This document shows positions 2,720 through 52,545 of a DNA stretch of 64,000 bases, in pieces. This DNA comes from Dipteris shenzhenensis. Its lineage: Eukaryota. Under the pieces are notes generated by a model. The model searched no databases. It was not told the origin of the DNA and was given only the letters and a program-made list of their open reading frames with translations. Where the stretch lies: assembly GCA_047967505.1 (NCBI GenBank), contig CM106538.1. The stretch is one strand, 5' to 3'. The position numbers and the translations under genes are program-made. Positions within the stretch are counted from its first letter, which is position 1, and each line of letters opens with the position of its first letter.

Positions 2720-4868
2720 TTCCCTCCTTAACTTGGCGGTAGGTTCATTGCTTCCAAGTAGTCTGCCAATATCTTGGGAAACTCTTGGAAAAAAATTTCG
2801 TCTAACAACACTGCTTAACGGGTACCTTGATCATGGAACTTGGTGTAAAGCTCCCGGATCCTGTGTCCTGACCCATGCTGGAATTTATGAAGAAGGATCT
2901 GTTGTGGCTGCAAAACTTCGGCTTCATCAAGAACTTCAGGTTGTTGCTCGTTGAAAATCTCTGAAAGAGGAGGTCCAAAATATGGCTTCAACCAAGTTAC
3001 ATGAAACACATTGTGCATAGTCCAACTGTCTGGAAGGCGTAACTTCATTGAGACATCGTTGATCTTTTGAATAATAGGGAATGGTCTGAAGCTCCTGAAG
3101 GACAGCTTAGGGCATCGCTTGCCGACCTGCTTTAATCTTTGCTTGATAATGCGTAAATACACCCTTTGTTCCTCTTTATACTTGACATTTCGTCTTGATT
3201 TGTTAGCCTGGCGCGCATACGATGCTTGAGCTTTGGCGATGCGGCTTTTCACGGACTTCGTAATCTCTGCCATTGATTCGGTGGTTTTGTTGGCTTCAAG
3301 AGATGGAGACACCCTTTGGGTGAGGAGTGATGTAAACTGCCGTCTAAATGCCGCTTCATAAGGTGTGCTACCAATACTCGAAGACTAGGTATCGTTCAGA
3401 ATGGCCTGCACAAGTGGAAGAAACTGCTTTGACTTTCCCTGAGCATCATGACAATATGCTTTCAAAATATCAAACGCCATACCATTATATTTTTCTGTCT
3501 CGCTGTTCGATTGCGAATGGAAAGCGTTGGACATCTGTAGCTTAGTATCAAAATTATCAAATAAGCCTCGCCAAAAGTTAGACGTAAACTTGGAGCCCCT
3601 GTCGGATGTGATGGTCTTTGGCAACCCTCCAATGGGATACCAATACTTGATAATTAAACGAGCTACATCTTTAGCGCTGGCCGTTTGTTTGTAAGGAATA
3701 AGCATACAATATTTACTAAAGCGATAAACAATAGTAAGACATTGAGTATTACGCATACCTGCAGATGCTAGAAGTGGTCCCATGAAATCCATACCTATGT
3801 CTTGAAAAGGACCGTCGGGGATTGGCAATGGCATAAGGAAGCCTGCCGCTTTCTTGTGGGAAGATTTGACCTTTTGGCATATCTGATAGCCGTATACGTC
3901 CTTTCACATCTTTGGCCAATAAAAATAGTACTCTAACTTCTCCAAAGTCCCGTTGATACCTCCGTGACCACCGGTAAGGGTGTCATGGGCATCATGAAGA
4001 AGCAACCGCCGTTTATCTTTGAGTACACATAATCTTTTCTTATAGAAAAGCCAACTGTTCTCTAATGAGTAATGGCGTGGAGCAAGCGTCTTGGCTAACT
4101 GGAACTGCATGCCAAACTCTGTTGACTCCGTCTACTGTGTCTTCATGCTATCAAGATTCTTTCCTTAGATTTCGAGCACGGTGGTCTGCTCAATAGTCTG
4201 GATGGAACCTTTCCGATTGAGAGTGTCTGCAACTACAACGGGGTTGGTTTTGCCAGGAACGAACTTGATCATTCCCCAAACTGCTAGAATATCTAGCTCC
4301 ACCGTTGTTGCCGATCGCTCCATTGCGCACTAGGCATTGTTTGAAGCCACTTAAGGGCTTGGTGATCTGTCTTAACTGTGAAAGTCCGTCCATATAGGAA
4401 AGGCTTCCAATGTTTTAATGCTTGGATGACACCGAGGAGCTCTCTATCATAAACTGAATAGTTCTTTTCGGCATCGTTAAGCTTTCTGTTGTAATATGCC
4501 ACGGGCCTATCTTCTTGCTGTAAAACTGACCCGATGGCGACATTGCTAGGGTCTGTGATTACTAGAAATGGATCCTCCTAAGGGGCGATCTTCATAACTG
4601 GTGTTGTCGTGGCCAGCCATTGCAATTCATGGAAGGTCTGCAAAGCTGTGCCTGTGACTTGAACTTTTTGTGTGCGTGTCTTTACCCCCTTGAGTAAATC
4701 TATAAGAGGGGTTGCATGTGTCGAGAAACCATCCATGTGTGAGCTGCTTGACACAAACTCACAAAGGATCGGATTTCGTGAGCCATCGTGGGGCCAGCCA
4801 AACTTGTGATATCTTGAATCTTCTCTGGGTCCAATCGAATCCCTTGAGCACTAATGATGTAGTCCAAA

Positions 4869-7800
4869 CATGATTGCAACCGTACGCGTACGGTCAGTTT
4901 TTCCGTACGGATTCTGTACGGCCGTACGTACGGATTTCCGTACGTGGCTTTTTTTGGGGTTAAAAAATCGGGATGCGTACCTTATATTGTTGCTGGGCTG
5001 CGATGTTCGAAATTCGAATCCGGATTCCGTACGAAAATATTGCAAGTTGCGAAGGCTTCCGTAGTACGTAGTACGTACTGTTCACGAATCACCGTCGACC
5101 GACGCTCTCAGCTCTGCTTGCAGCCTGCAGGCTGGCCGTTGCACACCGACCATTGCTGCCTCAAGAGCCTATTTAGGCTGACGTTTGCTTCTATTTAGGC
5201 AGGCTGCAGCCCTTTGCCCTCTTCTAAGCTTCTTCTGCACCTTGCTCAGTGCTGCCCTCTTCTTCAGTCCCGACTCCCGAGTCCCCTCAGCCCTTCACTC
5301 TTCTAAGTTCTAAGTTCTTCAGTTTGCCCTCTTCTTCAGCACCTTGCTGCCCTCTATTTAGACAGCCCTTTGCCCTCTTATACTTGCTTTGGAGGTGAGT
5401 GGTCACCGTACAGTTGCAGCCCGCAGCTTGCCTCTACGCTCTACCTGCTCCAAGTGTCAAGGTAAATGCAATGGCTGCTTTTTTTTCCTGTTTTGCAGCA
5501 AGTGCTCTCTCTTTAGTTGATGCCATCTAACAGGGCAGCCTGCAAGGACTTCAAGCCCTCTTTGGAAATTGTTCCTTTGCCCAATGCCCATTGCCTTATA
5601 ATTTATATGCCCTCTTTTGCAAATTTGCAGCTTGCAGATCTTACAAATGGGAAGACAAAAAGGACCAGAATGGGAATTTGTAGAGGCCTTGAAGCCTTTG
5701 GGGAAGGGCCAATTCACTTGTAAATGTAAATATTGCCCTCATTCATGGGATGGAGGACCGACCTGTATAAGGGCACATTTTCTTGGGATCACAGGCTTGG
5801 GGGTTGACAAGTGTACTGCTCCTCCTGAAAATGTGAAAGATACTTGTCGAAGATTGCAGGCAAAGGTGCCCCTAAAAACTGCTGCAAAACAGCTTGTTGA
5901 AGATGTGGCTGATTTGGGAGATGCCTCAGTGAGTGGTACTGCAAGTGGAAATGCATCTGGCAGTGCATATGAGCCAAAGCAAAAGAAGTTGAAGACGTCA
6001 AAGGGAACCTTGGAAAAGGCATGGGAGTCACAAGCAGGGAAGGATGCATACATTGCTCTCCGTCGTTTTTTCTTTGCAGAGGATATTCCTCATTGGAAGG
6101 TGAGGAGCCCTTATTTTTTGGAGATGGTTCGTGCCATTGGCCAAGTTGGGCCTACCTTCAAGCCTCCATCCTACAATGTTTTGCGCACAACGGAGCTAAC
6201 TAATGAAGTAGTATGCATAGATCAAGAGATGCTACAGTTTCGGGATAAGTGGAAAAAATATGGCTGCACCATAACTTGTGATGGTTGGTCTGACACTCGA
6301 CGCCGGCCTATAATCAATATTATGGTCTCATGCATATATGGTTCAGCCTTCTTGAAGTCCGTGGACACAAGTGGGCAGTATAAGTCAGGGGAGTACATCT
6401 TTGGGATACTGAAAGATGCCATTCTTGATGTTGGGGCTGAAAATGTGGTGCAGGTGTGTATGGACAATGCATCTAACTGTGTGCGGGCAGGAGAATTGGT
6501 GGAGGAAGAGTGGCCTCACATTTTCTATACTAGATGCACATGCCATTGCCTTGACCTCTTGTTTGAGGACATTGGAAAGCTTCCATGGGTAAAGCCAGTG
6601 TTGGTACATGCTAACATGATTGTGACATTTGTTACCCGGAAACACACCGTGTTAGCAATGTATAGAAAATTCAGCAAGAAGGAATTGGTGAAGCCAGCAC
6701 AAACACGGTTTGCTTACATGTTTATCATGTTAGCAAACTTGTTGGATGAGAGGGTATACAATGGATTGCGTCGCATGGTTGTCAGTGATGAGTATTGCAA
6801 GAAGAAGGTGTCACGCACTGTGAAAGCACAACAGGTGTCTTCTATTATATTGGGTGCTTCATTTTGGCAAGATGCAAGACTCATTGTGAAGCTTTGTGCA
6901 CCTATTTTGAAGATCCTTCGCCTGGCTGATAGGGAAGGGGCTACCATGGGACTTGTATATGAACTCACTGATCGGATGGTCGAGAAGATGGCAACTATTG
7001 ATGGGATTGAATCCTCAAAGCTGGCTGATGTTAGAGCCTTATGTGTTGACAGGTGGAATATGTTGCATTCTCCATTGCATGCGGCAGCGTTTGTTCTCCA
7101 TCCTATTTGGAGAAGAGAGAAAAATCCAGATAGTGACAAGGAGGTGCACGATGGGTGGATGGATGCCATAGAGCGGTACACCAAGTATGATGTTGACAGC
7201 CAAGGCACCTTATGTGATGAGTTGGATATTTACAAATCCATGTCAGGCACATTTGCTCGTGCGATTGCAAAGGATGAAAAGAGAATGCACCAAGGGGTGA
7301 AATGGTGGGAGACATTTGGGGCTCACACACCAAATTTACAGCGGTTAGCTCTTCGAGTGCTCTCGCAAGGCACATGTGCTTCTCCTTGTGGGAGGAATTG
7401 GAGCACATTCTCTCTTATCCATACTAAAAGAAGGAATAGGCTGCTTCCAAAGAATACCGAGAAATTAGTATACATCCATACTAATTTGCGTCTCATTTCC
7501 AAAATCAAGGAAAGGGGATTTGAGAAGATAGAAGTGACCCTAGAAATGATCAACAAGGAGAAGGATGATGATAGGCTGCTAGCGAGGCAAGCAGATACAG
7601 AGGGAGAAGACATTGCAGCCCCTATTGTTACACTTACAGGAACGATGGATGCTGCTGCAGCTTCAAGCAGCTCTAGTCTTTTGGAGTTCCATGGCGAGGC
7701 AGATGAGGATGATAGTGATGAGGAGGAGGAGGAGGATGAGGAGGGTGCAGGCATTGATGCAGATGATGATGAGGATGAGGATGAGCAAGAGGATGAGAAT

Positions 7801-8312
7801 GAAGATGCAGCTTGAGGCTGTGGCACACTGGCAGCCTTTTCTTTATGATGTTTTTCCTTTCATGTTTTGGTGTAGTTACTAATACGGTGTACCTACTTCC
7901 TTTGAAGTTTGATGGTGATGTTTTGGACCTTTTGAAATTTGGTGTAGTATTGATTATTGATCTATGATCTATGATTCCATCTATGATGTATCAAAATCTA
8001 GAATCCAGATGACTACGGTCTCTGGAGGCTGGAGTCTTTCATGAATGAAGAATCGCGATTCACGACTCATGACTCATGACTCATGATTGACGACTTTAAA
8101 ATTAATACAATTATACAAGTTTCAAGTTTCAGTTTAATACCTCTGTGTCAATTTAATGTGTACAATGATCAATGATCAATCTATATTTTTCTGAAATTTT
8201 TTGGATAAAACTAGGGTCACGTATGTTTCAGCCCCAAGGGCTGAACCATACTCCAATCATACTTCCGTACTCGTATGACGTATGCGTATGGTAACGTATG
8301 GAAAAAACTATG
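4869..8312 (+). mobile_element. hAT DNA transposon 1 (3444 bp) inserted in the Gypsy RT
   Basis: 8-bp TSD AGTCCAAA at 4861-4868 and 8313-8320. Imperfect TIRs CATGATTGCAACCGTACG / CGTATGGAAAAAACTATG. Subterminal CGTACG/CGTATG repeats. Confidence 0.95.
5647..7815 (+). CDS. hAT transposase (BED finger, DUF659-type core, dimerisation domain, acidic tail), 722 aa, intronless CDS; predicted catalytic Glu replaced by Gly
   Basis: CKYC...IRAHF BED finger; CDGW, DNASN, CTCH and WW motifs; SPCGRNWS where the family has CERNWS. ATG at 5647 follows a likely 5'UTR intron acceptor (ttgcag ending 5637). Confidence 0.9.
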   Translation: MGRQKGPEWEFVEALKPLGKGQFTCKCKYCPHSWDGGPTCIRAHFLGITGLGVDKCTAPPENVKDTCRRLQAKVPLKTAAKQLVEDVADLGDASVSGTASGNASGSAYEPKQKKLKTSKGTLEKAWESQAGKDAYIALRRFFFAEDIPHWKVRSPYFLEMVRAIGQVGPTFKPPSYNVLRTTELTNEVVCIDQEMLQFRDKWKKYGCTITCDGWSDTRRRPIINIMVSCIYGSAFLKSVDTSGQYKSGEYIFGILKDAILDVGAENVVQVCMDNASNCVRAGELVEEEWPHIFYTRCTCHCLDLLFEDIGKLPWVKPVLVHANMIVTFVTRKHTVLAMYRKFSKKELVKPAQTRFAYMFIMLANLLDERVYNGLRRMVVSDEYCKKKVSRTVKAQQVSSIILGASFWQDARLIVKLCAPILKILRLADREGATMGLVYELTDRMVEKMATIDGIESSKLADVRALCVDRWNMLHSPLHAAAFVLHPIWRREKNPDSDKEVHDGWMDAIERYTKYDVDSQGTLCDELDIYKSMSGTFARAIAKDEKRMHQGVKWWETFGAHTPNLQRLALRVLSQGTCASPCGRNWSTFSLIHTKRRNRLLPKNTEKLVYIHTNLRLISKIKERGFEKIEVTLEMINKEKDDDRLLARQADTEGEDIAAPIVTLTGTMDAAAASSSSSLLEFHGEADEDDSDEEEEEDEEGAGIDADDDEDEDEQEDENEDAA

Positions 8313-8880
8313 AGTCCAAATACTGAATTTCCAGCAAGCCGAATTCACTTTTCTTTGTGTTGAGGTATACGGGGTTATCACGTAATAACTGTAGGGTACA
8401 TCGCACATTCTTAATATGTTGCTCGGCTGTAGCGAAAAAGATAAGGATATCATCGAGAAAGATGAACATGCACTTCCCAATATACTCTGCAAACACCTGT
8501 GACATTATCTTGTTGAATGTTAGTGGTGCATTCTTCAAATTAAAGGGCATGACGACGAACTCGTAATGAGCTCGCTCTGTTCGGAAAGTTGTCTTTGGGA
8601 TGTCAGCTTCAAAAAATCCGGATTTGATGGTAGCCACTCTTGAGGTCAATCTTTGAGAAAATTTTTGCACCATTGAGTTGTTTTAAGATGTACTCGATGC
8701 GGGGCATAGGAAACTTGTTGCTTACTATAAGCTTGTTGAGTTCTTTGTAGTCGACACATAGTCGTGCGGACTTATCCTTCTTTGCCACAAATAGAATGAG
8801 TGCATCAAAAGGCGAAGAAGTGTTGGACTCTCTTTGGATTATCCTTATGGGAGAATAGTTAGCTTCTCTAAGGTCCATGG

Positions 8881-11800
8881 CATAGTTCAATGAAACGTTT
8901 CAGAACGTCGAAACGTGAAACGTTTTGAAACGTTTCAAAACGTTTCAAAATAATAGGTGAAGTTTCAAAAAACCAAATTGTATTTTTTGGGTCCAAAAAA
9001 TATAAATTTTATGCATGCATACATTTGGTATGCCAAAACTGTGCAAAACTAGCTAAAAACATAGAAAAAGAGTCAAGACTTGACAGAAAGCCTATAATGG
9101 CCAATGGTAGAATAGATTATAGACTCCAGAATCCAGATTAGAAAACTCAATCAAGCCTTCAACTTTATCAACAAGCCTATAATGGCCAATGCTAGAAATT
9201 AGAATAGAGTGTAGATTACAAAGCTCAATTAAGCCTTTAAATTTTAGAAATTAGATTTCAGTTGAGTAGATACTAGAATCTAGATAGGTCGCAAAAAATC
9301 AGATTTCAGATTACAATTTACAAGCTCAAGAGTCAAGCCTTAAACTTTATCATATTTCAGTTTTCACAAGTTCAGGAATCACAACCATGGAGTCTGGACA
9401 TAAATCAAGTTCTCAGTTTCACTCTTGTAAATAGTCTGCTAGTCTATAGACTAGAACCTAGATTACATAACTCAAGAGTCAAGAGTGAAGGCATCAACTT
9501 TAAATTTCAAACAAAACTAAAGTTCAAACTCTACTGAAATCTGAAAGAAAGTAGCAAGTTAATCAGCAAGAATCAAGATCTGTAGGTGCTTGGGCTGCGG
9601 GCATCTTCTCCCTGGCCCTCAGCCCCCTCCTCCTCCTCCTCCCCATCATCACTATCAGAATCTGCAGAAGTGGATGAATCCTCTTCTGATGATGAGGAGG
9701 TCTCCTGTTCTTCTGGAGCGGCTGCTATTAAAGTTGGTTCTGTTCTCCCTGCTCGTCTGCCTGCCTGAGATCGTGTGGCACGTGCCAACGATGCCCGCTC
9801 CTCAGCAATGAATGCATATGCATCATCATCCTCATGCATAGGATGAAGCATTTCATCCTCAGGGACTTGCACACGTATCTTATCAGGATCCACCTCCTGT
9901 GGACCTTCAATGGTCTTCATTCGTCGAATAAGTCGTAGATTGGCATGGACATATACAAGCCTACCATACACCAAATGAATTAACAGTAAATACATGTAGG
10001 TTGTAGCATAACTATAATTCAAATGCTAATAATGAGCTGTGTGCTGAGTGCATATATGATATAAAAGAAAATAGATATGCTGAGGCCGGAGTGCTCACAC
10101 ACAAAATTATGAATTACCTGTCAAGTTGTCCAGTGCCTAGTCTATTCCTTTTTTTAGTGTGTATAAGTGAGAACACACTCCAATTCCTTTCACAGGCGCT
10201 AGATGAGCAATCTTGTGAAAGGACTCGGAGGGCAATGCGCTTCAACTCCGGCGTGCCCCGACCATACTTCTCCCACCAGGTAACAGGCCTCAACTGACCA
10301 TCACGGAGACATGCACGAGCTGATCCAAACTCCCCAAAGGAGTTCCTAAATGAGAGGAGTTGGTCCTCCAAAGCATCTTGCAATATTGCATCTTGATATG
10401 CACGTTCAAGGAAACCTGTCCACCCTGCAGTCAACTCAGCATCATCCGATTGGGCCTCCCTCCTCCATAGAGGATGCAAAATGTGTGCTACTGCATGAAT
10501 AGGCCTATGGAACCATGTCCATCTTTTTTCCCACAAGGCCATAATCTCTTGCTCTCTGTAGGGTGCAAATGAAATATATTTAGGTTGCTGCAAACCTAGA
10601 ATCTAGATTCTAGATTCTAAATACAAATGTAACATCATACATGCAATTCCTTAAAGCTGCAAATAAGAAAATTAATTGCAGCCAACAGTGAATTGAAAGC
10701 CAAGATTCCTGATTTGCATTTACCTTGTTGCATCAAGCCATGTGCACCCTTTCAATGCCTCTCCAACCTTCTCCAGGAACTCATACACGAGTCCAATTGT
10801 GCATCCTTCTCTATCAACAAGTCGAAGGGTACTGAAAAGGGGCTGCACAATCCCCACAATCTCCTCAGCTGCATGCCAAAAATCACCATCAAACACAATG
10901 TCCTCAAAGGCACGTGCCTTTGGTTTGCTGGACTTATCCCAGCTCAACCATTCCTCACTGACTACCATGCGCCTTAAGTTAGGCTTCACCTTTACCAAGC
11001 GTGACAAGACTATAAAGAGATAGGCAAAGCGGGTCTTTGAGGGCTTCAGAATCTCATGGGAGCTATGTTGCCGAAAAATTGCAAGGGCTCTATGCTTCCT
11101 CGTCAAGAAAGTCACCATGCTCCGTGCCTTGTCAACCACCGAGGAAATCCAAGGAAGCTTCCCTATGTCCTCTATAAGAAGATCCAAACTGTGGGCAGCA
11201 CAGGGAGTCCAAAAGATATGCGGATAGTCACTCTCAAGTAGCGCACCCATGCGCTGACAGTTACTTGCATTATCTGTAACCACCTGTACTACATTCTGAG
11301 GCCCCACATCCTCTACTGCCTTCTTAATGTGGCTGTAAATGTACTCACCTGTATGAGATTCATTTGATGCATCTATGGATCTCAAAAACATAGTACCCAC
11401 GCAAGATGATACAAGAATGTTAATGAGCGGGCGCCTCCTGGTATCTGACCACCCATCACACAAAATGGAGCACCCGTATCTAGCCCATGATGCCTTAATA
11501 GGCTGCAGCTCCTTCTCAACTTGCAAGACCTCTGCTTTCAGCTCCCGAGTGCGTAAAGTCTCTGAAGATGGAGCCCTAAATGAAGGGCCAGCCTCAGCCA
11601 CTGCCTGAACGAACTCCTGAAAAGCTGGAGTACGAGCAAGGTTAAAGGAAAGGTCACACTCATAAAAGAGCTTGCGAGTTGCCCGACGAGCAGATGCAAG
11701 CAAAGTTGTGACCCAACTAGCTCGTAAAGTCCCTGGCCTGGGTGGTAACCTGGTTGAATTTGGAAACCTTGGAGGCTTCACAACTCGCACTGATGCCCGT

Positions 11801-12952
11801 CTAGTGGAAGCACTACCAATAGAAAAAGAAGCCCCTTGTGTAGGTGGTGAAAGTGGAGGAGGGGGTCCAGATGTCACAGATAGAACAGGACTCCTGGGAG
11901 GAGATCCAGGACGTACTAGTGTTGATGAGGCCTCAACTCGTGCCCTCTTTGACGGGCCACTTGGTGTGCCTCCCAAGGAAAGAATTACATCATCTGGAAC
12001 TTCTCCTACACATGGATTCACACCCTTTCCAGTGATACCAAGAAGATGTGCCCTTACACGAGGTGCACTACCACAAAATGAGCCACCACAATGCTTACAC
12101 TTCCATTGTTTCGAACCCGAAGCACCATACTGTTGCTCCACATGCACTTGCTCCCAAACAATGTCCTTTGCTCGCCCCATCTCTAAGCTATACTACCTGC
12201 AAGACAACCATAGATCCCTTTGATTATTTGTTGCTTCAAGCTTGCAAGACAAATTACAATAAATTTTGTATTGTGAATCGTGAATGTTACAAAATTTATT
12301 GTAATTTGTCTTGCAATAAATTACAATTATTTCGTGCAAGACCAACCAACTGCTTCCAATGCTCATTGCTCACAGCATCTAGCTAATAGCTAGCTAGCTG
12401 GCAATTAGTAGCATCATGCATGCAGCATGCAGCTTGCCACGCTCCAACGCAATGGACAAAAGGGGCTACATAGTACAGGCTTCTATCGTGAATCGTGATT
12501 CGTCATGCATGTAAGCAGCCAGCTGCCAGCTAATGTACCTGCGTCACGCGTCCACGATGCACTTGGGCCTCCTGGGACCTGTTCGTCGTTCAAACTTCAA
12601 AGGCGTTGGAGTAGACTGTAGAATGTGAATATCGAATCTCGATTGCTGCCTTGAGCCTTGCGTAGGGGCCAAGGCGCTTGGAGCTAGCAGCTACCTAGCG
12701 GCGCAGCCTGCGGGTGTCCTGTCGTGACTCGTGACTCGTCAAAAAGCCCCTAGCCTGCAGGTGTCGTGATTGTCGTCCAAAAGCCCCTTGCGCCGCGTCG
12801 CCGCCGTACGGGAGACGTACAAGAGATTTGCCCTTGCAAACTCTTATGTAAGCTTACCCTAGCCACGTTTCATTGAACATGAAACGTTTCGAAACGTGCT
12901 GCACGTTTCGAAACGTTTCAAATTCAATGAAACGCGTTTCATTGTGACTATG
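8881..12952 (-). mobile_element. hAT transposon 2, copy A (4072 bp), apparently autonomous
   Basis: TIRs CATAGTTCAATGAAACG / CGTTTCATTGTGACTATG; GAAACGTTT subterminal repeats; flanks GTCCATGG (left) and AGCGCAAT (right). Confidence 0.95.
9573..12180 (-). CDS. hAT transposase copy A, 3 exons (12180-10724, 10555-10118, 9960-9573), 760 aa
   Basis: Mirror image of copy B. GT-AG introns; BED finger, CDGW, DNASN, CAAH and SACERNWS (complete DDE). Confidence 0.9.
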
Positions 12953-13418
12953 AGCGCAATAAGCTGAAATCAAAACATACGACTTGCTTTACTATATGAA
13001 CAAAGAATAAACAACCGACTCAGCTCATGAATTTTACACAAAAGCCTTTTATTGCAATAAACTCAGACTCGCTATCTACTAAGGCTCATCCCGACCGGGC
13101 TTTTTGCCAATACAAAGGACTCTGCTATCAACCCTAATGAGCAGCTGCTCAGACGCACACAAACTCAGAGAGCCTCGAAGGCTCAGACAAAAGGAAGGAC
13201 TTCATGCTTCTCGTGTCGTCTTTGTAGGTACGCTACTGCCGCCTCAACGCTTCTCTGCATGCCGCCTCACGTACAACCTCCTAGTTGCTTTGCCACACGT
13301 TGCCCATGCATTGGGCCACCCACATGAGCCAATCAATCAACACCACCTCAGATAGTCTCCCTTCACGTGCTCATTCATGTCGACCTCAACATGAGGTAAA
13401 TAACCTTTAACCATGGAC

Positions 13419-16400
13419 CATAGTCACAATGAAACGCGTTTCATTGAATTTGAAACGTTTCGAAATGTGCAGCACGTTTCGAAACGTTTCATGTTCAATG
13501 AAACGTGGCTAGGGTAAGCTTACATAAGAGTTTGCAAGGGCAAATCTCTTGTACGTCTCCCGTACGGCGGCGACGCGGCGCAAGGGGCTTTTGGACGACA
13601 ATCACGACACCTGCAGGCTAGGGGCTTTTTGACGAGTCACGAGTCACGACAGGACACCCGCAGGCTGCGCCGCTAGGTAGCTGCTAGCTCCAAGCGCCTT
13701 GGCCCCTACGCAAGGCTCAAGGCAGCAATCGAGATTCGATATTCACATTCTACAGTCTACTCCAACGCCTTTGAAGTTTGAACGACGAACAGGTCCCAGG
13801 AGGCCCAAGTGCATCGTGGACGCGTGACGCAGGTACATTAGCTGGCAGCTGGCTGCTTACATGCATGACGAATCACGATTCACGATAGAAGCCTGTACTA
13901 TGTAGCCCCTTTTGTCCATTGCGTTGGAGCGTGGCAAGCTGCATGCTGCATGCATGATGCTACTAATTGCCAGCTAGCTAGCTATTAGCTAGATGCTGTG
14001 AGCAATGAGCATTGGAAGCAGTTGGTTGGTCTTGCACGAAATAATTGTAATTTATTGCAAGACAAATTACAATAAATTTTGTAACATTCACGATTCACAA
14101 TACAAAATTTATTGTAATTTGTCTTGCAAGCTTGAAGCAACAAATAATCAAAGGGATCTATGGTTGTCTTGCAGGTAGTATAGCTTAGAGATGGGGCGAG
14201 CAAAGGACATTGTTTGGGAGCAAGTGCATGTGGAGCAACAGTATGGTGCTTCGGGTTCGAAACAATGGAAGTGTAAGCATTGTGGTGGCTCATTTTGTGG
14301 TAGTGCACCTCGTGTAAGGGCACATCTTCTTGGTATCACTGGAAAGGGTGTGAATCCATGTGTAGGAGAAGTTCCAGATGATGTAATTCTTTCCTTGGGA
14401 GGCACACCAAGTGGCCCGTCAAAGAGGGCACGAGTTGAGGCCTCATCAACACTAGTACGTCCTGGATCTCCTCCCAGGAGTCCTGTTCTATCTGTGACAT
14501 CTGGACCCCCTCCTCCACTTTCACCACCTACACAAGGGGCTTCTTTTTCTATTGGTAGTGCTTCCACTAGACGGGCATCAGTGCGAGTTGTGAAGCCTCC
14601 AAGGTTTCCAAATTCAACCAGGTTACCACCCAGGCCAGGGACTTTACGAGCTAGTTGGGTCACAACTTTGCTTGCATCTGCTCGTCGGGCAACTCGCAAG
14701 CTCTTTTATGAGTGTGACCTTTCCTTTAACCTTGCTCGTACTCCAGCTTTTCAGGAGTTCGTTCAGGCAGTGGCTGAGGCTGGCCCTTCATTTAGGGCTC
14801 CATCTTCAGAGACTTTACGCACTCGGGAGCTGAAAGCAGAGGTCTTGCAAGTTGAGAAGGAGCTGCAGCCTATTAAGGCATCATGGGCTAGATACGGGTG
14901 CTCCATTTTGTGTGATGGGTGGTCAGATACCAGGAGGCGCCCGCTCATTAACATTCTTGTATCATCTTGCGTGGGTACTATGTTTTTGAGATCCATAGAT
15001 GCATCAAATGAATCTCATACAGGTGAGTACATTTACAGCCACATTAAGAAGGCAGTAGAGGATGTGGGGCCTCAGAATGTAGTACAGGTGGTTACAGATA
15101 ATGCAAGTAACTGTCAGCGCATGGGTGCGCTACTTGAGAGTGACTATCCGCATATCTTTTGGACTCCCTGTGCTGCCCACAGTTTGGATCTTCTTATAGA
15201 GGACATAGGGAAGCTTCCTTGGATTTCCTCGGTGGTTGACAAGGCACGGAGCATGGTGACTTTCTTGACGAGGAAGCATAGAGCCCTTGCAATTTTTCGG
15301 CAACATAGCTCCCATGAGATTCTGAAGCCCTCAAAGACCCGCTTTGCCTATCTCTTTATAGTCTTGTCACGCTTGGTAAAGGTGAAGCCTAACTTAAGGC
15401 GCATGGTAGTCAGTGAGGAATGGTTGAGCTGGGATAAGTCCAGCAAACCAAAGGCACGTGCCTTTGAGGACATTGTGTTTGATGGTGATTTTTGGCATGC
15501 AGCTGAGGAGATTGTGGGGATTGTGCAGCCCCTTTTCAGTACCCTTCGACTTGTTGATAGAGAAGGATGCACAATTGGACTCGTGTATGAGTTCCTGGAG
15601 AAGGTTGGAGAGGCATTGAAAGGGTGCACATGGCTTGATGCAACAAGGTAAATGCAAATCAGGAATCTTGGCTTTCAATTCACTGTTGGCTGCAATTAAT
15701 TTTCTTATTTGCAGCTTTAAGGAATTGCATGTATGATGTTACATTTGTATTTAGAATCTAGAATCTAGATTCTAGGTTTGCAGCAACCTAAATATATTTC
15801 ATTTGCACCCTACAGAGAGCAAGAGATTATGGCCTTGTGGGAAAAAAGATGGACATGGTTCCATAGGCCTATTCATGCAGTAGCACACATTTTGCATCCT
15901 CTATGGAGGAGGGAGGACCAATCGGATGATGCTGAGTTGACTGCAGGGTGGACAGGTTTCCTTGAACGTGCATATCAAGATGCAATATTGCAAGATGCTT
16001 TGGAGGACCAACTCCTCTCATTTAGGAACTCCTTTGGGGAGTTTGGATCAGCTCGTGCATGTCTCCGTGATGGTCAGTTGAGGCCTGTTACCTGGTGGGA
16101 GAAGTATGGTCGGGGCACGCCGGAGTTGAAGCGCATTGCCCTCCGAGTCCTTTCACAAGATTGCTCATCTAGCGCCTGTGAAAGGAATTGGAGTGTGTTC
16201 TCACTTATACACACTAAAAAAAGGAATAGACTAGGCACTGGACAACTTGACAGGTAATTCATAATTTTGTGTGTGAGCACTCCGGCCTCAGCATATCTAT
16301 TTTCTTTTATATCATATATGCACTCAGCACACAGCTCATTATTAGCATTTGAATTATAGTTATGCTACAACCTACATGTATTTACTGTTAATTCATTTGG

Positions 16401-17490
16401 TGTATGGTAGGCTTGTATATGTCCATGCCAATCTACGACTTATTCGACGAATGAAGACCATTGAAGGTCCACAGGAGGTGGATCCTGATAAGATACGTGT
16501 GCAAGTCCCTGAGGATGAAATGCTTCATCCTATGCATGAGGATGATGATGCATATGCATTCATTGCTGAGGAGCGGGCATCGTTGGCACGTGCCACACGA
16601 TCTCAGGCAGGCAGACGAGCAGGGAGAACAGAACCAACTTTAATAGCAGCCGCTCCAGAAGAACAGGAGACCTCCTCATCATCAGAAGAGGATTCATCCA
16701 CTTCTGCAGATTCTGATAGTGATGATGGGGAGGAGGAGGAGGAGGGGGCTGAGGGCCAGGGAGAAGATGCCCGCAGCCCAAGCACCTACAGATCTTGATT
16801 CTTGCTGATTAACTTGCTACTTTCTTTCAGATTTCAGTAGAGTTTGAACTTTAGTTTTGTTTGAAATTTAAAGTTGATGCCTTCACTCTTGACTCTTGAG
16901 TTATGTAATCTAGGTTCTAGTCTATAGACTAGCAGACTATTTACAAGAGTGAAACTGAGAACTTGATTTATGTCCAGACTCCATGGTTGTGATTCCTGAA
17001 CTTGTGAAAACTGAAATATGATAAAGTTTAAGGCTTGACTCTTGAGCTTGTAAATTGTAATCTGAAATCTGATTTTTTGCGACCTATCTAGATTCTAGTA
17101 TCTACTCAACTGAAATCTAATTTCTAAAATTTAAAGGCTTAATTGAGCTTTGTAATCTACACTCTATTCTAATTTCTAGCATTGGCCATTATAGGCTTGT
17201 TGATAAAGTTGAAGGCTTGATTGAGTTTTCTAATCTGGATTCTGGAGTCTATAATCTATTCTACCATTGGCCATTATAGGCTTTCTGTCAAGTCTTGACT
17301 CTTTTTCTATGTTTTTAGCTAGTTTTGCACAGTTTTGGCATACCAAATGTATGCATGCATAAAATTTATATTTTTTGGACCCAAAAAATACAATTTGGTT
17401 TTTTGAAACTTCACCTATTATTTTGAAACGTTTTGAAACGTTTCAAAACGTTTCACGTTTCGACGTTCTGAAACGTTTCATTGAACTATG
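13419..17490 (+). mobile_element. hAT transposon 2, copy B (4072 bp), inverted relative to copy A
   Basis: Same termini as copy A; paired coordinates all sum to 26371; flanks CCATGGAC (left) and ATTGCGCT (right). Confidence 0.95.
14191..16798 (+). CDS. hAT transposase copy B, 3 exons (14191-15647, 15816-16253, 16411-16798), 760 aa
   Basis: Splice sites AG|gtaaat...ctacag|A and AG|gtaatt...tggtag|G. Joined length is 2283 nt (761 codons), open throughout, with an intact D-D-E triad. Confidence 0.92.
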
Positions 17491-17625
17491 ATTGCGCTAT
17501 CACCATACTTGCCTATTGCATTGCATGCAATCAATAATTCATTCCATAGCTTGTAAAAGCCATCAAGAAGAAGGTCTAATAAACCTTGCATGTAGTAATT
17601 GAGACAATTGCTGCTCCCCCTCCAT

Positions 17626-18025
17626 CATAGTTGCAATGAAACACGTTTTTTCTTTTTTGAAACGTTTTCAAACGTTGCCAAACGTTTGGAAATAAAAAAC
17701 ACATTTTTTTGGCAGTGGTTTTTGAAGGTCAAATTTTTGCCCTATTTTTCATCAAAACAATCAAAGGAGCTGTCGCCATCGCGCTTTGTTGGAAAACGCC
17801 TTCTTGGACTCACTTCTGAGTGTATGAACATATAAGATTGCTGAAGTGTTCTCCTCTATGCTCCTCACTGTTTTGGGTGCCATTAGTGCCTGTAATCATG
17901 CATTTTAGGTCCCAGGAATGTGTACGTATAGTAAAACAGGCGCTTGGGCAAAATTTTGCTACGAAACATGTTTGGAAAATTTTCCAAACGTCTGCAAACG
18001 TGTTTCCAAACGTCTGGCAACTATG
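17626..18025. mobile_element. Non-autonomous hAT element/MITE (400 bp)
   Basis: TIR CATAGTTGC...GCAACTATG; 8-bp TSD CCCTCCAT at 17618-17625 and 18026-18033; AAACG(TTT) subterminal repeats like hAT2. Confidence 0.93.
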
Positions 18026-18781
18026 CCCTCCATAGACTTAGAAAGTCGATACGGGAACTTACTTGGAGGTGTCGAGTCCGGAAGTAGATTAATGTGATGG
18101 TCTTTCGGTCGGTTGGGAGGAAGCTGGGGTGGCAGATCATCTCGGAGCATGATGTCTTGGAACTCTTGGAGTAGATCCACCATTGCTTGTCCCATCGGAG
18201 GAGCAGCTTGAACTGCAGTGATTTGGCATTGGACGTAGACAAGTGCACACATGGCGTCCTTGCAAGTGGCGCGACTTGCTTGAACATGCGAGATTAATGG
18301 AATCCCTAGTATGCTCCGATGGTCGCGTATCACGGCGGGCTCAGGTAAACCTTCCACAATAGTGAAGGTGTCCTGCTGCCAATCACGCGTGGGTACATGC
18401 TCACGGAACCATTGAATCCCGAGGATCATGTTGCACCCCATCAAAGGAGTCGAAATAAAATCCCGCGTAAACATGGCCTTCTGAACTAAAATAGGGAAAT
18501 GGATGGCCTTATGCGTGATGTGTGTGCGCAAGCCGGCCATGAACCCGTCCACTGCAAGCTCGTGAGGCACCAAGGTGCACCCCACTGTCTTGGCAAGTTG
18601 AGGGGGGATGGCATCTTTTGAACTTCCCATATCGAAAAGGACAATAAATTGATGCCCGTTAGCTGCTCGAATGAGCGCCTTTTTTTGATATGAGAAATCG
18701 CCCTCCTTCTTACCTTGAAAGACCACGGGGGGAATGGTGTTCAAAGCAAGGAAGACGGCATTCGTAAGCTGAGGATGGAGG

Positions 18782-19950
18782 TGTTAGAAACTCACTGTGC
18801 CTACTTGTGAGCCCCCGATTTGAGGAGACAAGGGGCAGTGAGAGGTAGGAGGGCTGGGGAGAGAGAGAGACTCAGGCCGGCATCATAGGCAACCAGCACA
18901 CGGGCTGGTTGTAGTCTGCAACAGCAGGAATAAAGGGGCTCTAGGCCTCACATAGAGGCACCAGGAGCAGCATTGACTGGCCGCCCAGGGCGCCCTTAAA
19001 TAAGGGCCTGTGGCTGGCCAAGTCGGCCCAACCAGGGCCACCGACCAAGGCCAACCCTGGTCGGTTTTCTAGGGCCCATGTGGTCGGCCACCAGACAGGG
19101 TACCGACCCTGCTGGTCGGTCAACTCAAGGGGCTTGGGCAGTGCCTATAAAAGGCCTACTCCTCCATTCATTCCAGCATCCAGTGCAAGACTGGAGAGAT
19201 GCACTTATATCAATATACATGCGCACACGCGCACCCCCCCCACACACACGTGTGTACCGCACGCACGTTCGTGTGTGTGTGTACACACACATAGGGTTGC
19301 GAGGGTGCCCTAGTGGAGCTTGGGGGACACACACACACACATGTTCTTGATGAACTCATGTTCGCGTACTGGAAACTCGCAACATGGACTTTGCATGTCC
19401 ATTATCGCACATTTCAATCAATTCTAGTCGCCTACATCCAGTTTTATTCGCCTTTGATGATGTTTGCCAAGCACTTAGATCTGGAGCAGTTGGTGAGAGA
19501 GAGAGTCCACCAATATTCTCTAGCACTTTGCTGTGTTTTGTACTGCTCCCTTGGAGCTATTTTTCTGCCCACCATCTGGTGGATGAATATACTCTCTTTC
19601 TCTCTCCGTCCATATTTATTTCTGAGAGAGTGTTTGTTGCATCTGTGATCATCTATCTGAGTTGAGTGTGTGTAAGAGTTGGAGAGATCTTGGGTGGAGG
19701 TTTGAGTGATTCATTCCTCCTTCCTCCTTCTCCAGTCATCTTCCTTCTTCATTTATTCCCAATTTTGGTGAAGCTGGAAAGCTCAATGGGATGAATTATC
19801 CAATCTGGAAAGTCAAGATCCGAAGCCATTTGTTGGCACGGAAGCTGTGGAAGATAGTGATTGGGACCGAGGAGAAGCTGGAGGACATTGTGGACAAAAG
19901 AGGTGAAGTTTTATTCGAAGCAGATGCGGATGAACTCAGTGCATCAAAGA
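18782..19950 (+). mobile_element. Truncated Copia 5' fragment (probable LTR start plus gag N-terminus)
   Basis: TGTTAG start where the Gypsy protease homology stops; TATA-like cctataaaagg near 19145; KLNGMNYPIWKVKIRSHLLARKLWKIVIG (Copia gag N-terminus) at ~19780-19880. No PBS or TSD found. Confidence 0.55.
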
Positions 19951-19976
19951 CTGTTGGTCTCCCGTGGACATTAATA

Positions 19977-20015
<39 letters not shown>

Positions 20016-20191
20016 AAGCTCTTTGATGAGCATGTGAGAGGAGAGAAGTACCAGCGGTGTGAAGGTATTTTGCAGCACTTGGCTTTAGATATTGAGGAGC
20101 ACTTGGCTGCACGCATGAGCAGTTGTTTGTTACTTTAAGCTCGCGTATTGGTGGAGATGATAGTATGATCTTTTGGTGTTGTATGTTTCCA

Positions 20192-20535
20192 GATCTAGCC
20201 TTCTCCTTTAGTGCTAGCCTGCGTCATGGCTGAGTTTTCCCTTCACCTCCGGAGTGTCGACAGAAACTCAGTACGAAGACTTTGTATAAATGGATGCTCA
20301 AGTATGTGTGGGTGTGTGGATTTTGTATATGTGAGAGCATACTTTTATACTATGGTCTACACCCACTGTTGGGCGCTGATGACGTCAGTGGGGATGTCAT
20401 AGTAGCTAGTCCCTACTATGCGTGATGGAGTTTATGGTTTTCAATCTTATGAGTGACTCTTGTGAGATTGAAACTGCACTATGTTGTGTTTTTAGAGGAT
20501 GAGTTTGGGAATGTTCCTAGATTCATCTAGGTATA
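20192..20535. repeat. Dispersed ~340-bp hairpin-rich repeat, copy 1
   Basis: Homologous to 33246-33579 and partly to 52935-53040; flanked by the 13-bp direct repeat TTGTATGTTTCCA (20179-20191, 20536-20548). Confidence 0.8.
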
Positions 20536-20807
20536 TTGTATGTTTCCAAATTTGATCGATTCTCTTTCATTGCATTGTGCACTTGTGGGTTGATAGATTG
20601 GAGTGAGTAGTGTGAGAGCTTCCCACCTAGTTTTTGCCGCTAGGGTTAGCTTGTCACATAATCAGGTTAAAAATAATGCTTGGTGAAGGGGACAATTTGT
20701 CTCGAAGGATGAACTAGTCCAGCTTGAACGGTTGACCTTTCATCTTCTATTAAAATTAAAATTGTTTGTGTGATTAAAGTGTATGTGGTCTTTGAAACTA
20801 TATTGGT

Positions 20808-21818
20808 AGGTTGTGGTTATATGGAGGTGCACCTATCAGGTGCTTGTAGTGGGACCGAGGAGAGTGGGAGTGGATAGATCATGGGCACCGAGAGAGGGGG
20901 ATTCCCTTCTTTTGTTTCATGGTTGGTAATGCCAGGAGATTTCAGTTGAGCAGTAGGGGTTGGATTCCCTCAAGAGCCCCCCACTGGGACAGCTTCTTTA
21001 TCACCGTAGATTTGTGTAGGAATTTCTGGAGGAGGCTTTGGAAATCCCTCAGAAATAGAAAGATCACTCTTTTCTTTTGGCTTTCTATTCATGGAGGGAT
21101 TGCAGTGAACTTGTGGAGATCACGATTTAGGGCTGATCCCACTTGCCCTCACTGTCATTCTGTAGAGGAGTCAGTGCGACATTGCCTTTGGGACTGCAGT
21201 CAGGCTAGGACTGTTTGGAAAGGGGTTGCTCGGATACTCAGCATTTTTCATACTTCCCCTTTCTTCATGACTTGGGGCTTGGTCGCATGGTTATTACTTA
21301 CTGGGCCCCAGGTGTTTTATGAGGGTGAGCCTTCTTCTTGGGCACTCTCGGTCCGCCGACAGGTGATAGAGCCCTGCTCTCTTCATGATGTACCACTTAC
21401 TCCCTTCAGAGCTTCTCATGCTTCAGTGGACACCTCTTGGGAGATTTTGGCTAGCATTTCCTCTTGGCACATTTGGAGAGCCAGATGTACAGAGGCCTTG
21501 GATGGCACCCAGATACACCCATCAGAGGTGTTCACGGGTATTGGACTGACACGGTTTACACTTTGATAGCCATATGGGCTAGCATGCAGGGCCCTTCATG
21601 GGCAGCCTCTTTTAGGAGGACTGTATATCTTCGAGTTTGGAGGGGTTCTCCCTTTTTCTCAGAGGTTTCTACTAGATTGAGATGGCACTATCAGCCCCAA
21701 TCCTTTCTTTTGGCTCTTGAGCTTTTCATGCATTGCATGGTGTATCCCATATGGAGCTTGCTCTAACAGTTTTCTTTAATACTTAATAGAAGTCTCTTTT
21801 TGCAAAAAAAAAAAGAAA
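20808..21818 (+). mobile_element. 5'-truncated L1-like LINE (zf-RVT region, frameshifted)
   Basis: FWRRLWKS...FFWL...CPHC...ESVRHCLWDC and WHIWRAR; A-rich tail at 21804-21818; 14-bp TSD gaaact(a/g)tattggt at 20794-20807 and 21819-21832. Confidence 0.9.
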
Positions 21819-22479
21819 GAAACTGTATTGGTTATGGATTTCCTAGTTTCAGTTTGTCGTTTTTAAAGGATGTTGCGTCTTGAGCTAATTCTAATTTGCT
21901 TGTATCTAACAGTTTTGGCCCTTGGTGATGCATTCAACTTGACATGATGAATAGTTAACCCTTGAGGCTAAGGACTGATTTGGTAGGCGTCTAAGGGAAA
22001 GTTTGGGTTACTTTTATTAGTTAAGCTAAATATAGCTATAGGTGCTGTGGGACTTTACTCTTCTTGCAAGAAGATTGTGGTATGCAAAGATGGTGTCTTC
22101 TAGAAGATTGAATTTGGCTGTTTGAGAGCGTCCCTTGTATACTTAAGTGAGATTGATGATGTGTGAGGTGGATTAAGGAGTGGAGTCAGTGTAGAGACGA
22201 GTGAGGCATTGGGTAGCTCTAGCAAGAAGATTGTGGTGTGGATAGATCTTGTCTTCTAAAAGATTGAATTTCAGCCTGAGACAATTGGTCAAGAGGCCTT
22301 CTTGGTAACTAGATCAGTGAGACTGGGATTGGTGAGAACAAGACGGAAAAAGACATGGAATGAGTGATCAACAGCATTCCCAATTATTGCTCTAGCGGCA
22401 ATTGGGAATGTGAGAGACTGCAATTTTCCATACGAAAACTTGGAGGAGGAAGTCTAGGTGCAGCAGACACATGGATTTT

Positions 22480-22685
22480 TCTTCTTGGATTAGAAAGAGA
22501 GAGACATCCTTCACAAGACTATGTATGGGCTGAACAGGCCTGGAGAGCTTGCTACTAGAACTACTTCACAGTCCCACTTGTAATTTGTTGGATGCGAGCC
22601 TACATCTTGCACAAGACGGAAACAAGATTTGATGGCCATCTTTGTGTATGTAGATGACTTGATCATCACCATGATCACATTAGGG
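22480..22685 (+). pseudogene. Copia RT remnant
   Basis: Degenerate KTMYGL...AWRACY and AIFVYVDDLII. Confidence 0.65.
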
Positions 22686-23225
22686 TGATTCACTAGAATG
22701 GAGGCACAAGGGCCTTACAACCCTGCCTTAGGCGTTCAACCACCATCCCCTCCAATTATTGCCAGGGCCACCCTTCAAACATTGGTATTTTCCCAGCCGG
22801 GTTTTGGCAATTGGGATACTTACCTCTTTGTGGGGTCGATATGTGCAGATCTGGGGCAATTATCAGCCTTCATGTTAGTGCACATAGGTTCGTTTTGATT
22901 TGAAGGGAAGACCCTTTGTCTATTTGAATGAAGAAACTCACTATCTTAATGTGAACATATATTTAAGCATGGGGAGCTGCAACTGGCTTTCAGATTTCAG
23001 AGCATGCAACATGGTTATGATTTGAAGTTTTTGAGTGAGACTCTTGTTTGAAATCTGATGACCACAGCACATTTGTTTTTGTTGTGATGATAAAGTTGCG
23101 AAAACCTGATGCTTTCATCAGATTTATCATTGAAAATCATTAACTCCAGGCTACAAGGAGGTACGTGATATTTTTCAAATATTGATTTCTTTAACATAAT
23201 AATGACAGTGGGCCTTTATTTTCAG

Positions 23226-23823
23226 ATTAAAGTCTCTCTCTCGCTGGAAGGAGGACGGACACCTGAAGGTATCAGATTTTTTAAATGTGGAGAAGGCAGA
23301 AGCTGTGGAATTCGGCCAGACAGGTGAAGGAGACTCTCCTCAAACAAGCTTAAGCACCCATAGCAAATACCAGGACGATGATAATGAGGCTTCCTCTAAA
23401 GATATGGACTCAGAGAAGCTTTGTCAGCAGCACATGCAAAAGCTTAAGGAACTTGTGTCACAGCATCATGGGGTTCTTGAAGATGACTGGAAAGTGGCCG
23501 TCAAGAAGCGGATGAGTTCTGGGAAAGCTTATGATGTTACATTCTATTCTCCAGATGGGCAAAAGTTTCGGTCTAGGCTGGAGGTTGCCAGATATTTGGG
23601 CCTTCTAGAGCAGAAGAGGGGAGACACGAATTCTAGAGAGTGGTCCTCTCCTGTTCCTCGATCAAGGAAAAGAAAGGAGTTGGCAAGGAGCCAAAAACAG
23701 GCTTATTTGTCAGAGGAGGATGACCAAAGTGATGATGAATCTCTCGACCTTGCAAAATGCAGAAATAGTGAGACACCTCGGGATTCTGAATTTCCAGATC
23801 CTTCTACTGATGTGGAGATTCAG
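23226..23823 (+). CDS. MBD9: MBD9 exon, MBD domain
   Basis: ttcag|A acceptor, CAG|gtgat donor; WKVAVKKR...YDVTFYSPDGQKFRSRLEVARYLG. Confidence 0.88.
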
Positions 23824-24182
23824 GTGATCCTTCCTTGTCATAGCTTGCATAAAGTCTTGTATCTGATACTGAGCAGTTGGGACTTATCCCTGCTTTGTAT
23901 GCTTGAAATGGTAGAACTCGGTGTGTGTGTGTCTGTGTGTGTATTCACGAAAAAAGAAAAGAAAAGTGTGTGTCTGTGTGTGTGAGGATATACATATGTT
24001 TACATATGTTGTTGCATGTTTTACGTATCTAATACTGTACATTCCTGCTTTTGTGTTTTTGTACGTGTAGAGCTATGTGTGTGTGTGTGACATATGTTTT
24101 ACATATACAGATGTTCACACATGTCCACATATCCACATACACAATGTCTATATGTATACAGTATATATATGTATGTATATAC

Positions 24183-24237
<55 letters not shown>

Positions 24238-24537
24238 AAAGTAAAAGAGAGGGTAGTCCATGTCCTTTGTCTTAAAATGAGTTCTAATGGATTCTAATGG
24301 GTCTCAAATATTCAAAAATTCAGTATCTTCATGACCACGATTCTATTTGATGTGCAATTTTTTAAATCAGCGTGCCCTCTAATCATTCTGCTACTTCAAG
24401 TTTAGAGTTATATATATCTACATACATACATACGTACGTACGTACATACATACACTTATATCTCCACACATACATATATACATACATGTGCGTGTGTGTA
24501 TTTCTATGTATGTATGTGTATATATACATATATTTAT

Positions 24538-24580
<43 letters not shown>

Positions 24581-29651: not shown

Positions 29652-29689
<38 letters not shown>

Positions 29690-52496: not shown

Positions 52497-52545
<49 letters not shown>

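Follow-up and report, generated by a model that had tools for sequence, protein, structure and literature searches.

How an active DNA transposon is first recognized for silencing is an open question, for which the best-supported answer is that the element's own aberrant jumps create inverted duplications and that these give rise to hairpin RNA. The papers found on this answer deal with maize or are general reviews, and the alleles behind it are few, comprising Mu killer and two Ac killers. Mu killer is described as a partial inverted duplication of MuDR, for which a hairpin of ~4 kb is proposed, produced when transcription of a neighboring gene reads through (PMC3440606). The Ac killers p1-ww-id1 (now named Ack1; PMC13635294) and p1-ww-id4 are reported to have arisen by sister-chromatid transposition with re-replication and contain inverted, fractured-Ac 5' pieces of 1.8–3.9 kb, located in host intron 1 in id1 and in host intron 5 in id4 (Wang et al., 10.1101/2020.01.07.897926). 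The same account describes double-stranded RNA (dsRNA), small interfering RNAs (siRNAs) of 21, 22, and 24 nt, and heritable silencing in trans; at the composite insertion in intron 1, the host promoter drives dsRNA synthesis, and for p1-ww-id4 the Ac promoter itself is the proposed driver (10.1101/2020.01.07.897926). Here, we describe a stretch of 64,000 nucleotides from Dipteris shenzhenensis (contig CM106538.1 of assembly GCA_047967505.1; referred to in its entirety as the window) that contains an 8.6-kb palindrome formed by two complete hAT transposons, upstream of the first visible exon of an MBD9-type gene.

A preliminary description of this DNA, made from its letters, had pointed to the maize precedents and proposed that the palindrome lies in an MBD9 intron and acts as a silencer of its own transposon family. 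The precedents exist as it cited them, and, as reported, they include one Ac-killer insertion in intron 1 driven by a host promoter. The analysis below establishes the structure of the pair, and considers its origin and the routes by which a transcript could come to span both arms.

Two complete hAT elements arranged head to head

A repeat search of positions 7000–20000 returned one inverted pair, with arms at 8881–12952 and 13419–17490 that are each 4072 nt long and lie 466 nt apart. The arms span the element from terminus to terminus, its 5' region and complete transposase gene included; their complementarity ends exactly at the element ends, and the paired palindrome is not continued beyond them. 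The palindrome consists of two complete, near-identical, autonomous-type hAT copies in head-to-head arrangement, so that the 466-bp spacer is bordered by their 5' ends and lies on the side where the transposase genes start. In a base-by-base comparison, the arms differ at 2 of 4072 positions (99.95% identity). The first mismatch (10454 versus 15917) is non-synonymous and affects one residue (arm 1, Ala; arm 2, Asp), and the second (12905 versus 13466) is a CpG transition within a subterminal repeat. The coordinates and sizes given in the preliminary description were matched exactly by the repeat search, and its reading of the arms as carrying terminal inverted repeats (TIRs), a promoter region, and a full transposase gene is borne out by a complete hAT element with target-site duplications (TSDs) of 8 bp and an intact 760-aa transposase; its statement that the arms are 100% identical has to be amended to the value above.

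Features of hAT elements are present throughout, including an 8-bp TSD, short TIRs, and a C-terminal dimerization domain with an uninterrupted reading frame. The TIR of each arm is imperfect, comprises ~17 bases built on CATAGT..CAATGAAACG, and is represented by the ends CATAGTTCAATGAAACG and CATAGTCACAATGAAACG; the same motif recurs at the end of a small neighboring element (Table 1). In copy 2, the motif GAAACG occurs eight times in the first 250 bp, seven times in the last 72 bp, and nowhere else, a restriction to the ends that we take to resemble the subterminal transposase-binding repeats of Ac. Stop-to-stop open reading frames (ORFs) of both arms match DUF659 (PF04937, E=6e-57) and the hAT dimerization domain Dimer_Tnp_hAT (PF05699, E=1e-10) in Pfam.

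As transcript evidence, contigs of four out of six candidate sequencing runs (X1–X4; shares 0.16, 0.09, 0.08, and 0.05), none of which is on record as RNA, were compared with positions 12700–32699, a range that leaves out most of arm 1 and the junction 8880/8881. The second intron of the transposase gene was confirmed by an X1 contig that has 0 differences over 15814–16251 and joins 16251 to 16409 with GT..AG boundaries. For the first intron, an alignment of the 760-aa model with the hAT ORF at 5602–7815, which has no intron, is free of gaps over the junction (41% identity, 496 bits). A further intron, in the 5' untranslated region at 13824–14182, is suggested by an X1 contig of greater divergence (26 differences in 713), in which case transcription would start in the inner 400 bp of each copy. 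The gene model of copy 1 is the mirror image of that of copy 2, the arm-1 coordinate being 26371 minus the arm-2 coordinate.

When the exon-1 protein was searched (395 matches at E<=0.001 among 7997 scored candidates), the best relative was 68% identical over 65% of the query, followed by proteins with 43–44% identity and many Ceratopteris proteins at ~40%; the hAT family of the palindrome is poorly represented in the protein collection. On these sequence features, it is justified to regard each arm as a whole autonomous-type hAT element. Signs that the family may be mobile are indirect, namely the near identity of the two copies (2 differences in 4072 bp) and the occurrence, in X1 and X4, of spliced transcripts that match the arms exactly. 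The CpG measure of the arm (0.53; window mean 0.43, exons 0.33–0.43) is uninformative with regard to long methylation.

Table 1. Positions in the window of the inverted hAT pair, its target-site duplications, and neighboring features
Feature	Position	Strand	Remarks
TSD A (GTCCATGG)	8873..8880	.	Borders copy 1 on its outer (left) side; 13411-13418 is its exact reverse complement
hAT copy 1 (arm 1)	8881..12952	-	Complete element, transposase on minus strand; 3' end outer, 5' end inner; terminus CATAGTTCAATGAAACG
Transposase gene, copy 1	9573..12180	-	Mirror of copy-2 model, three coding exons; Ala (10454) where copy 2 has Asp
Spacer (inter-transposon segment)	12953..13418	.	466 bp; probably inverted relative to the flanks
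hAT copy 2 (arm 2)	13419..17490	+	Complete element, transposase on plus strand; 5' end inner
Transposase gene, copy 2	14191..16798	+	Exons 14191-15647, 15816-16251, 16409-16795; stop codon 16796-16798; 760 aa, no internal stop
TSD B (ATTGCGCT)	17491..17498	.	Borders copy 2 on its outer (right) side; 12953-12960 is its exact reverse complement
First MBD9 exon in the window	23226..23823	+	MBD domain (PF01429); matches P0002 residues 280-484; acceptor start, GT donor end
Gypsy reverse-transcriptase domain (RVT_1)	8308..8878	-	Pfam; directly abuts copy 1
Gypsy RNase H	4577-4296	-	Left of the palindrome
Gypsy integrase	4131-3385	-	Left of the palindrome
Gypsy SH3	3384-2815	-	Left of the palindrome
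Second, different hAT	5602-7815	+	Uninterrupted 737-aa ORF with DUF659 and hAT dimerization domain; 41% identical to the palindrome transposase
MITE-like non-autonomous relative of the palindrome hAT	17626..18025	+	400 bp; same terminal motif; own direct 8-bp TSD (CCCTCCAT)
ORF like the pre-RT part of gypsy pol	17962..18783	-	Right of the palindrome; no Pfam match, assigned by reading motifs by eye

Target-site duplications and the origin of the pair

The 8-bp duplications around the two copies are not arranged as in two ordinary insertions. The first 8 bases of the spacer are the reverse complement of TSD B, which flanks copy 2 on the far side, and the last 8 bases are the reverse complement of TSD A, which flanks copy 1, so that the order of the locus reads L-A-[copy 1>]-rc(B)-spacer-rc(A)-[<copy 2]-B-R. 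Judged from the sequence, these swapped TSDs are the pattern of two hAT insertions after inversion of the segment between them. A small element to the right of the palindrome, resembling a miniature inverted-repeat transposable element (MITE), has a TSD of its own, which brings the independent 8-bp TSDs at the locus to three (two for the pair, one for the MITE).

Two routes to this arrangement appear about equally probable, and they are not separable at this locus. In the first, a one-step sister-chromatid transposition, a single replicated element would be cut at its inner end on one chromatid and at its outer end on the sister (one 5' and one 3' end); both ends would then insert into a site ~450 bp away on the same side, inverting the intervening piece and leaving the reciprocal chromatid with an empty donor site. 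The product of this geometry, which was worked out by hand, would be L-A-E>-rc(B)-rc(s)-rc(A)-<E-B-R, exactly the order observed. In the second, an ordinary local jump in inverted orientation would be followed by homologous recombination between the copies, which flips the spacer. The junction signature of sister-chromatid transposition (a new 8-bp duplication at the 5' and 3' ends of different copies, together with an inverted host segment) is seen as predicted, and the second route predicts the same pattern. Both routes have precedents, sister-chromatid transposition as a source of inverted Ac duplications (10.1101/2020.01.07.897926) and the local jump in rice, where 2 of 270 lines were reported to contain a second Ds element, inverted, 1.1 kb from the first, and 33 of 300 regenerated plants showed a flip of the inter-transposon segment by recombination (PMC3239180). 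The single aberrant jump of the preliminary description fits the swapped TSDs as one of these two good readings; a local inverted insertion with a recombination flip fits them equally.

The same junctions bear on whether the assembler made the palindrome or set the orientation of its spacer, either from a fold-back chimeric read or by mis-orienting a segment between long inverted repeats. The near-perfect identity of the arms, and genomic support that is limited to the assembly itself, would agree with such an artefact, and reads shorter than an arm could let an assembler flip the 466-bp segment between 4-kb inverted repeats. However, a fold-back chimera would mirror the flanks without a spacer, whereas the outer flanks here are two different unique sequences, for which a comparison for hidden duplication gave a best local alignment of only 7 bases. 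The spacer moreover holds exact 8-bp reverse-complement copies of both flanks, a signature of biological transposition, and the two mismatches between the arms include a CpG transition and a non-synonymous change. A mis-oriented spacer would give the swapped TSD pattern too, yet two inverted copies 466 bp apart would remain. An assembly origin is therefore very improbable, and its fold-back form is rejected on the flank logic (no mirrored flanks, a spacer present, swapped TSDs). Since a repeat of such size cannot arise by chance, and given the internal logic of swapped duplications and differing unique flanks in the assembly, we regard the palindrome with high confidence as a real structure produced by hAT transposition.

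With only 2 mismatches in 4072 bp, the pair appears to be recent, or else to have been homogenized by gene conversion. Plant substitution rates are roughly 0.5–1.5e-8 per site per year. At these general plant rates, which are perhaps not those of this lineage, the time since the copies separated would not exceed some tens of thousands of years, a figure that is an underestimate if gene conversion acted.

MBD9, read-through transcription, and hairpin potential

Downstream of the palindrome, the plus strand encodes an MBD9-type gene with the domain order MBD, FYRN, DDT, PHD, and WHIM1/WSD (Pfam). The MBD exon as a query for longer proteins gave no match, and a query with the 932-aa WHIM/WSD exon gave seven relatives, with which the gene is collinear (best 49% identity; Adiantum 43%, Ceratopteris 39%, angiosperm MBD9-like 27%). 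In tblastn searches with the seven relatives, of which the matches of three were inspected, the exons span 23224 to 53671. The palindrome ends 5.7 kb upstream of the first visible exon, which opens in mid-codon at an acceptor (tttcag followed by A) and has no start codon ahead of the MBD domain. In X4, positions 23820 and 30358 are joined with GT..AG boundaries by a 7388-nt contig whose identity to the window is ~99%, and correctly spliced, full-length MBD9 contigs are found in both X4 and X1 in material ~99% identical to the window. MBD9 is thus expressed and spliced in close relatives or conspecifics.

The N-termini of the relatives share a well-conserved, PHD-like block of ~110 residues. 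Their N-terminal 250–280 residues have no match in the window, tblastn exons being found only from 23218–23224 onward, and searches of positions 1–23300 for the block with a profile of three N-termini and with three single phmmer queries returned noise only (best E=0.5, at 4566–4694 on the plus strand, antisense to gypsy pol). The block is either encoded to the left of position 1 or lost from this MBD9 copy. If the 5' exon lies beyond the left end of the window, all of 1–23225, including the palindrome, is intron. An intron of 23 kb is credible in this gene, since other MBD9 introns measure 6.5 and 14.7 kb; among the contigs listed, none has a loose end at 23226. The acceptor start, the unmatched N-terminal block, and the length of the other introns together suggest that the pair probably lies within a 5' intron of more than 23 kb. 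The intron location given in the preliminary description is supported to the extent that the exon at 23226 starts at an acceptor and the N-terminal block has no match in the window; the upstream exon that would complete the case was not located there.

Given this placement, a simple model would be that MBD9 transcription reads through both arms. The two transposase genes diverge from the center, with the minus strand read in arm 1 and the plus strand in arm 2. Because they run outward, their own promoters would give two identical sense mRNAs and no hairpin, and a hairpin requires read-through from outside. An external transcript would carry both arms and fold into a stem of ~4 kb; in a 1466-nt miniature comprising the spacer and 500 nt of each arm, the predicted fold (-1165.7 kcal/mol) is a single stem of 500 bp with no interruption. 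The likeliest such transcript would be the plus-strand MBD9 pre-mRNA, if the pair lies in the 5' intron. Other entries could be a plus-strand run-on from the hAT element at 5602–7815 or a minus-strand gypsy transcript, for which no promoter-bearing long terminal repeat (LTR) was found. Dicer-like enzymes would cut the stem into siRNAs directed against the hAT family, as at maize Mu killer and Ac killer. In our analysis, a candidate silencing-hairpin locus is the best explanation overall, with the evidence evenly poised, and the production of hairpin-derived siRNAs from the locus is likewise an even prospect. That the locus is an effective trans-silencer of the family is a more tentative proposal, which we place clearly below even.

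Several observations weigh against this explanation. The divergent genes exclude a self-driven hairpin of the kind proposed for Ac killer p1-ww-id4. No contig among those listed bridges 12952/12953, 13418/13419, or 17490/17491, although contigs cannot show the absence of a rare pre-mRNA. Spliced hAT contigs identical to the arms are present in X1 (15814–16251 joined to 16409) and X4 (0 differences over 16432–16588), and both copies have intact ORFs and show no decay. Transposase mRNA of this or an identical copy is therefore present in the X1 and X4 samples, which mildly suggests that the family is not fully shut off there; a fully effective killer would predict otherwise, if those samples carry this allele. 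In addition, the support for the structure comes from within the assembly, and the placement in an intron is argued from the absence of an upstream MBD9 exon in the window; the MBD9 copy could instead be 5'-truncated, or use an unseen promoter between 17.5 and 23.2 kb.

Much of this would also be expected if the pair were an inert by-product, formed in a recent accident of hAT transposition and at no time read through both arms by one transcript. It would then be subject to ordinary RNA-directed DNA methylation with no family-specific silencing role, and would decay or be lost because long palindromes are unstable. The lack of a junction-crossing contig among those listed, spacer bins that are almost uncovered in all four runs compared, outward genes that give no self-driven hairpin, spliced hAT transcripts identical to the arms, and surroundings made up of nested transposon debris all agree with an inert pair. 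On the other hand, if the 5' exon of MBD9 lies to the left of the window, transcription of the gene cannot proceed without polymerase passing through the pair, and MBD9 is expressed; the contigs cannot show that a rare pre-mRNA is absent; and comparable intronic inverted Ac repeats in maize gave dsRNA. We consider an inert pair a substantial possibility, only a little short of an even chance.

Alternatively, the pair may act mainly in cis, and such an effect is compatible with a silencing hairpin. Together with the host gypsy element, it would make a block of the 5' intron heterochromatic and prone to hairpins, and this block, rather than silencing the hAT family in trans, would reduce MBD9 transcripts or cut them short, for instance at the terminator of the sense transposase gene in arm 2. 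Heterochromatic intronic transposons can cause premature termination in plants. Arm 2 holds a complete gene in sense orientation to MBD9, with its own splice sites and 3' end, and the position of the pair upstream of an acceptor-initiated exon fits such an effect. The full-length, correctly spliced MBD9 contigs in X4 and X1 would argue against it if those samples carry this allele, and we regard a mainly cis-acting role as unlikely.

Beyond the candidate silencing hairpin as such, the locus could be a natural, full-length "hAT killer" outside seed plants, in which a single aberrant jump created both a transposase source, in the form of two intact outward genes, and a 4-kb hairpin, transcribed through the MBD9 5' intron of more than 23 kb, that silences the whole family. 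This extended version is improbable as a whole. Arabidopsis MBD9 acts with SWR1/H2A.Z and against DNA hypermethylation. If the extended version is true, silencing that spreads from the hairpin could feed back on MBD9, a regulator of silencing.

Four further observations concern the MBD9 gene. Its last coding exon (53441–53671, plus strand) has a second, weaker copy at 56944–57150 on the same strand, 3.3 kb downstream; the two are 74% and 45% identical, respectively, to P0002 residues 2344–2419. The last intron (38688–53440, 14.7 kb) contains a minus-strand copia-type element with RVT_2 at 45114–46251 and integrase fragments at ~48.1–48.6 kb. Within the 6.5-kb intron, 25373–26039 has high depth in all four runs (111, 141, 49, and 13) and is probably another repeat. 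(GT)n-rich microsatellite tracts directly follow the donor of the MBD exon, at 23880–24090.

Surroundings of the pair and comparison with known systems

The pair is nested in a degenerate, minus-strand Ty3/gypsy pol gene, and the neighborhood as a whole is nested transposon debris comprising gypsy, a second hAT, copia gag, and a LINE zf-RVT fragment. The second hAT interrupts the same gypsy pol gene ~1 kb to the left of the palindrome and reads toward it; a TIR and 8-bp TSD pair was sought at its ends, and none was found at the threshold used. A search of 30 small ORFs at 17.9–23.2 kb for a gypsy gag or LTR that could serve as a minus-strand promoter gave none that was assignable, only copia-gag and LINE fragments on the plus strand. 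No long direct repeat was found in 1–24000, and an Rfam scan of the window gave 0 matches. The segment at 20037–20703 has extreme summed contig depth in all four runs (4616, 1057, 95, and 842) and contains numerous loose ends and short joints; this points to a very high-copy or highly expressed repeat, one that has no Rfam match.

The MITE-like element lies 135 bp to the right of the palindrome. An empty site for it is provided by a paralogous gypsy contig in X2, which joins 17616 to 18026 without the element. The spacer is unique within the window. Its identity as an inverted piece of the gypsy reverse transcriptase (RT) was considered and ruled out, as no RT-like frame was found in either orientation. 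A motif like the N-terminus of RT appears to occur on the minus strand on both sides of the palindrome, at 8800–8880 and 17540–17625, and there is no DNA similarity between the flanks. Approximately 590 bp (right flank plus spacer) have no assignable origin, and the two gypsy pieces may belong to different elements.

The present analysis adds the swapped TSDs, the intact and outward-facing transposase genes, the nesting in gypsy pol, the indirect support for a very long MBD9 5' intron, and the direct precedent in the literature. The locus presents a killer-like architecture in a distant plant lineage, and does so at what appears to be a very young stage, with complete arms and junctions that still record how the pair was formed. 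If carriers and non-carriers of the allele exist, the generality of the hairpin route to silencing would be directly testable. If the pair is never read through, it would still be a clean, natural, cis-paired inverted hAT pair, a type that drives rearrangements in rice and maize.

The nearest structural counterpart, as far as the published accounts describe it, is the inverted Ds pair at rice OsRLG5-161, in which two identical inverted hAT elements lie 1.1 kb apart, compared to 466 bp here (PMC3239180, PMC3429523). The rice pair is likewise derived from one element, by a local jump, with 8-bp TSDs at each copy, and the flip seen in 33 of 300 plants would give the swapped-TSD pattern. In contrast to the palindrome, the rice elements are transgenic, non-autonomous Ds copies in tissue culture that were studied for rearrangements rather than silencing, and their TSDs were normal as first isolated.

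With Mu killer, the palindrome shares a natural inverted duplication that contains TIR and transposase sequence; the hairpin of ~4 kb proposed for Mu killer comes from flanking-gene read-through, a route that could also apply to the palindrome. Mu killer differs in belonging to the Mutator superfamily and in being a partial duplication only, and its silencing of the family in trans is genetically proven.

The Ac killers are closer, being of the same superfamily. In both cases, an inverted duplication includes the 5' end of the element; in maize it is ascribed to aberrant (sister-chromatid) transposition, which is one of the two candidate origins here. The Ac killers lie in an intron of a host gene, with the host promoter shown or proposed as the driver of dsRNA, and the corresponding intron and driver are inferred for the palindrome. 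The differences reported are considerable. Maize arms are fractured, partial Ac 5' pieces in composite insertions, whereas the arms here are complete and intact; flanking duplications reach the megabase scale in maize, whereas here nothing but the TSDs is duplicated in the flanks and the copies are separated simply by an inverted 466-bp spacer. The dsRNA of id4 is ascribed to the Ac promoter, a source that the divergent genes make impossible for the palindrome. Finally, dsRNA, siRNAs, and heritable silencing were demonstrated in maize, and the palindrome is known from its sequence.

The locus thus combines the inverted duplication of a terminus and transposase-coding sequence that characterizes a killer locus with complete arms that carry intact transposase genes, in place of the partial, non-autonomous fragments of the cases described. 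By its architecture, it is a candidate further member of the killer class, for which the mechanism itself is already established in maize.

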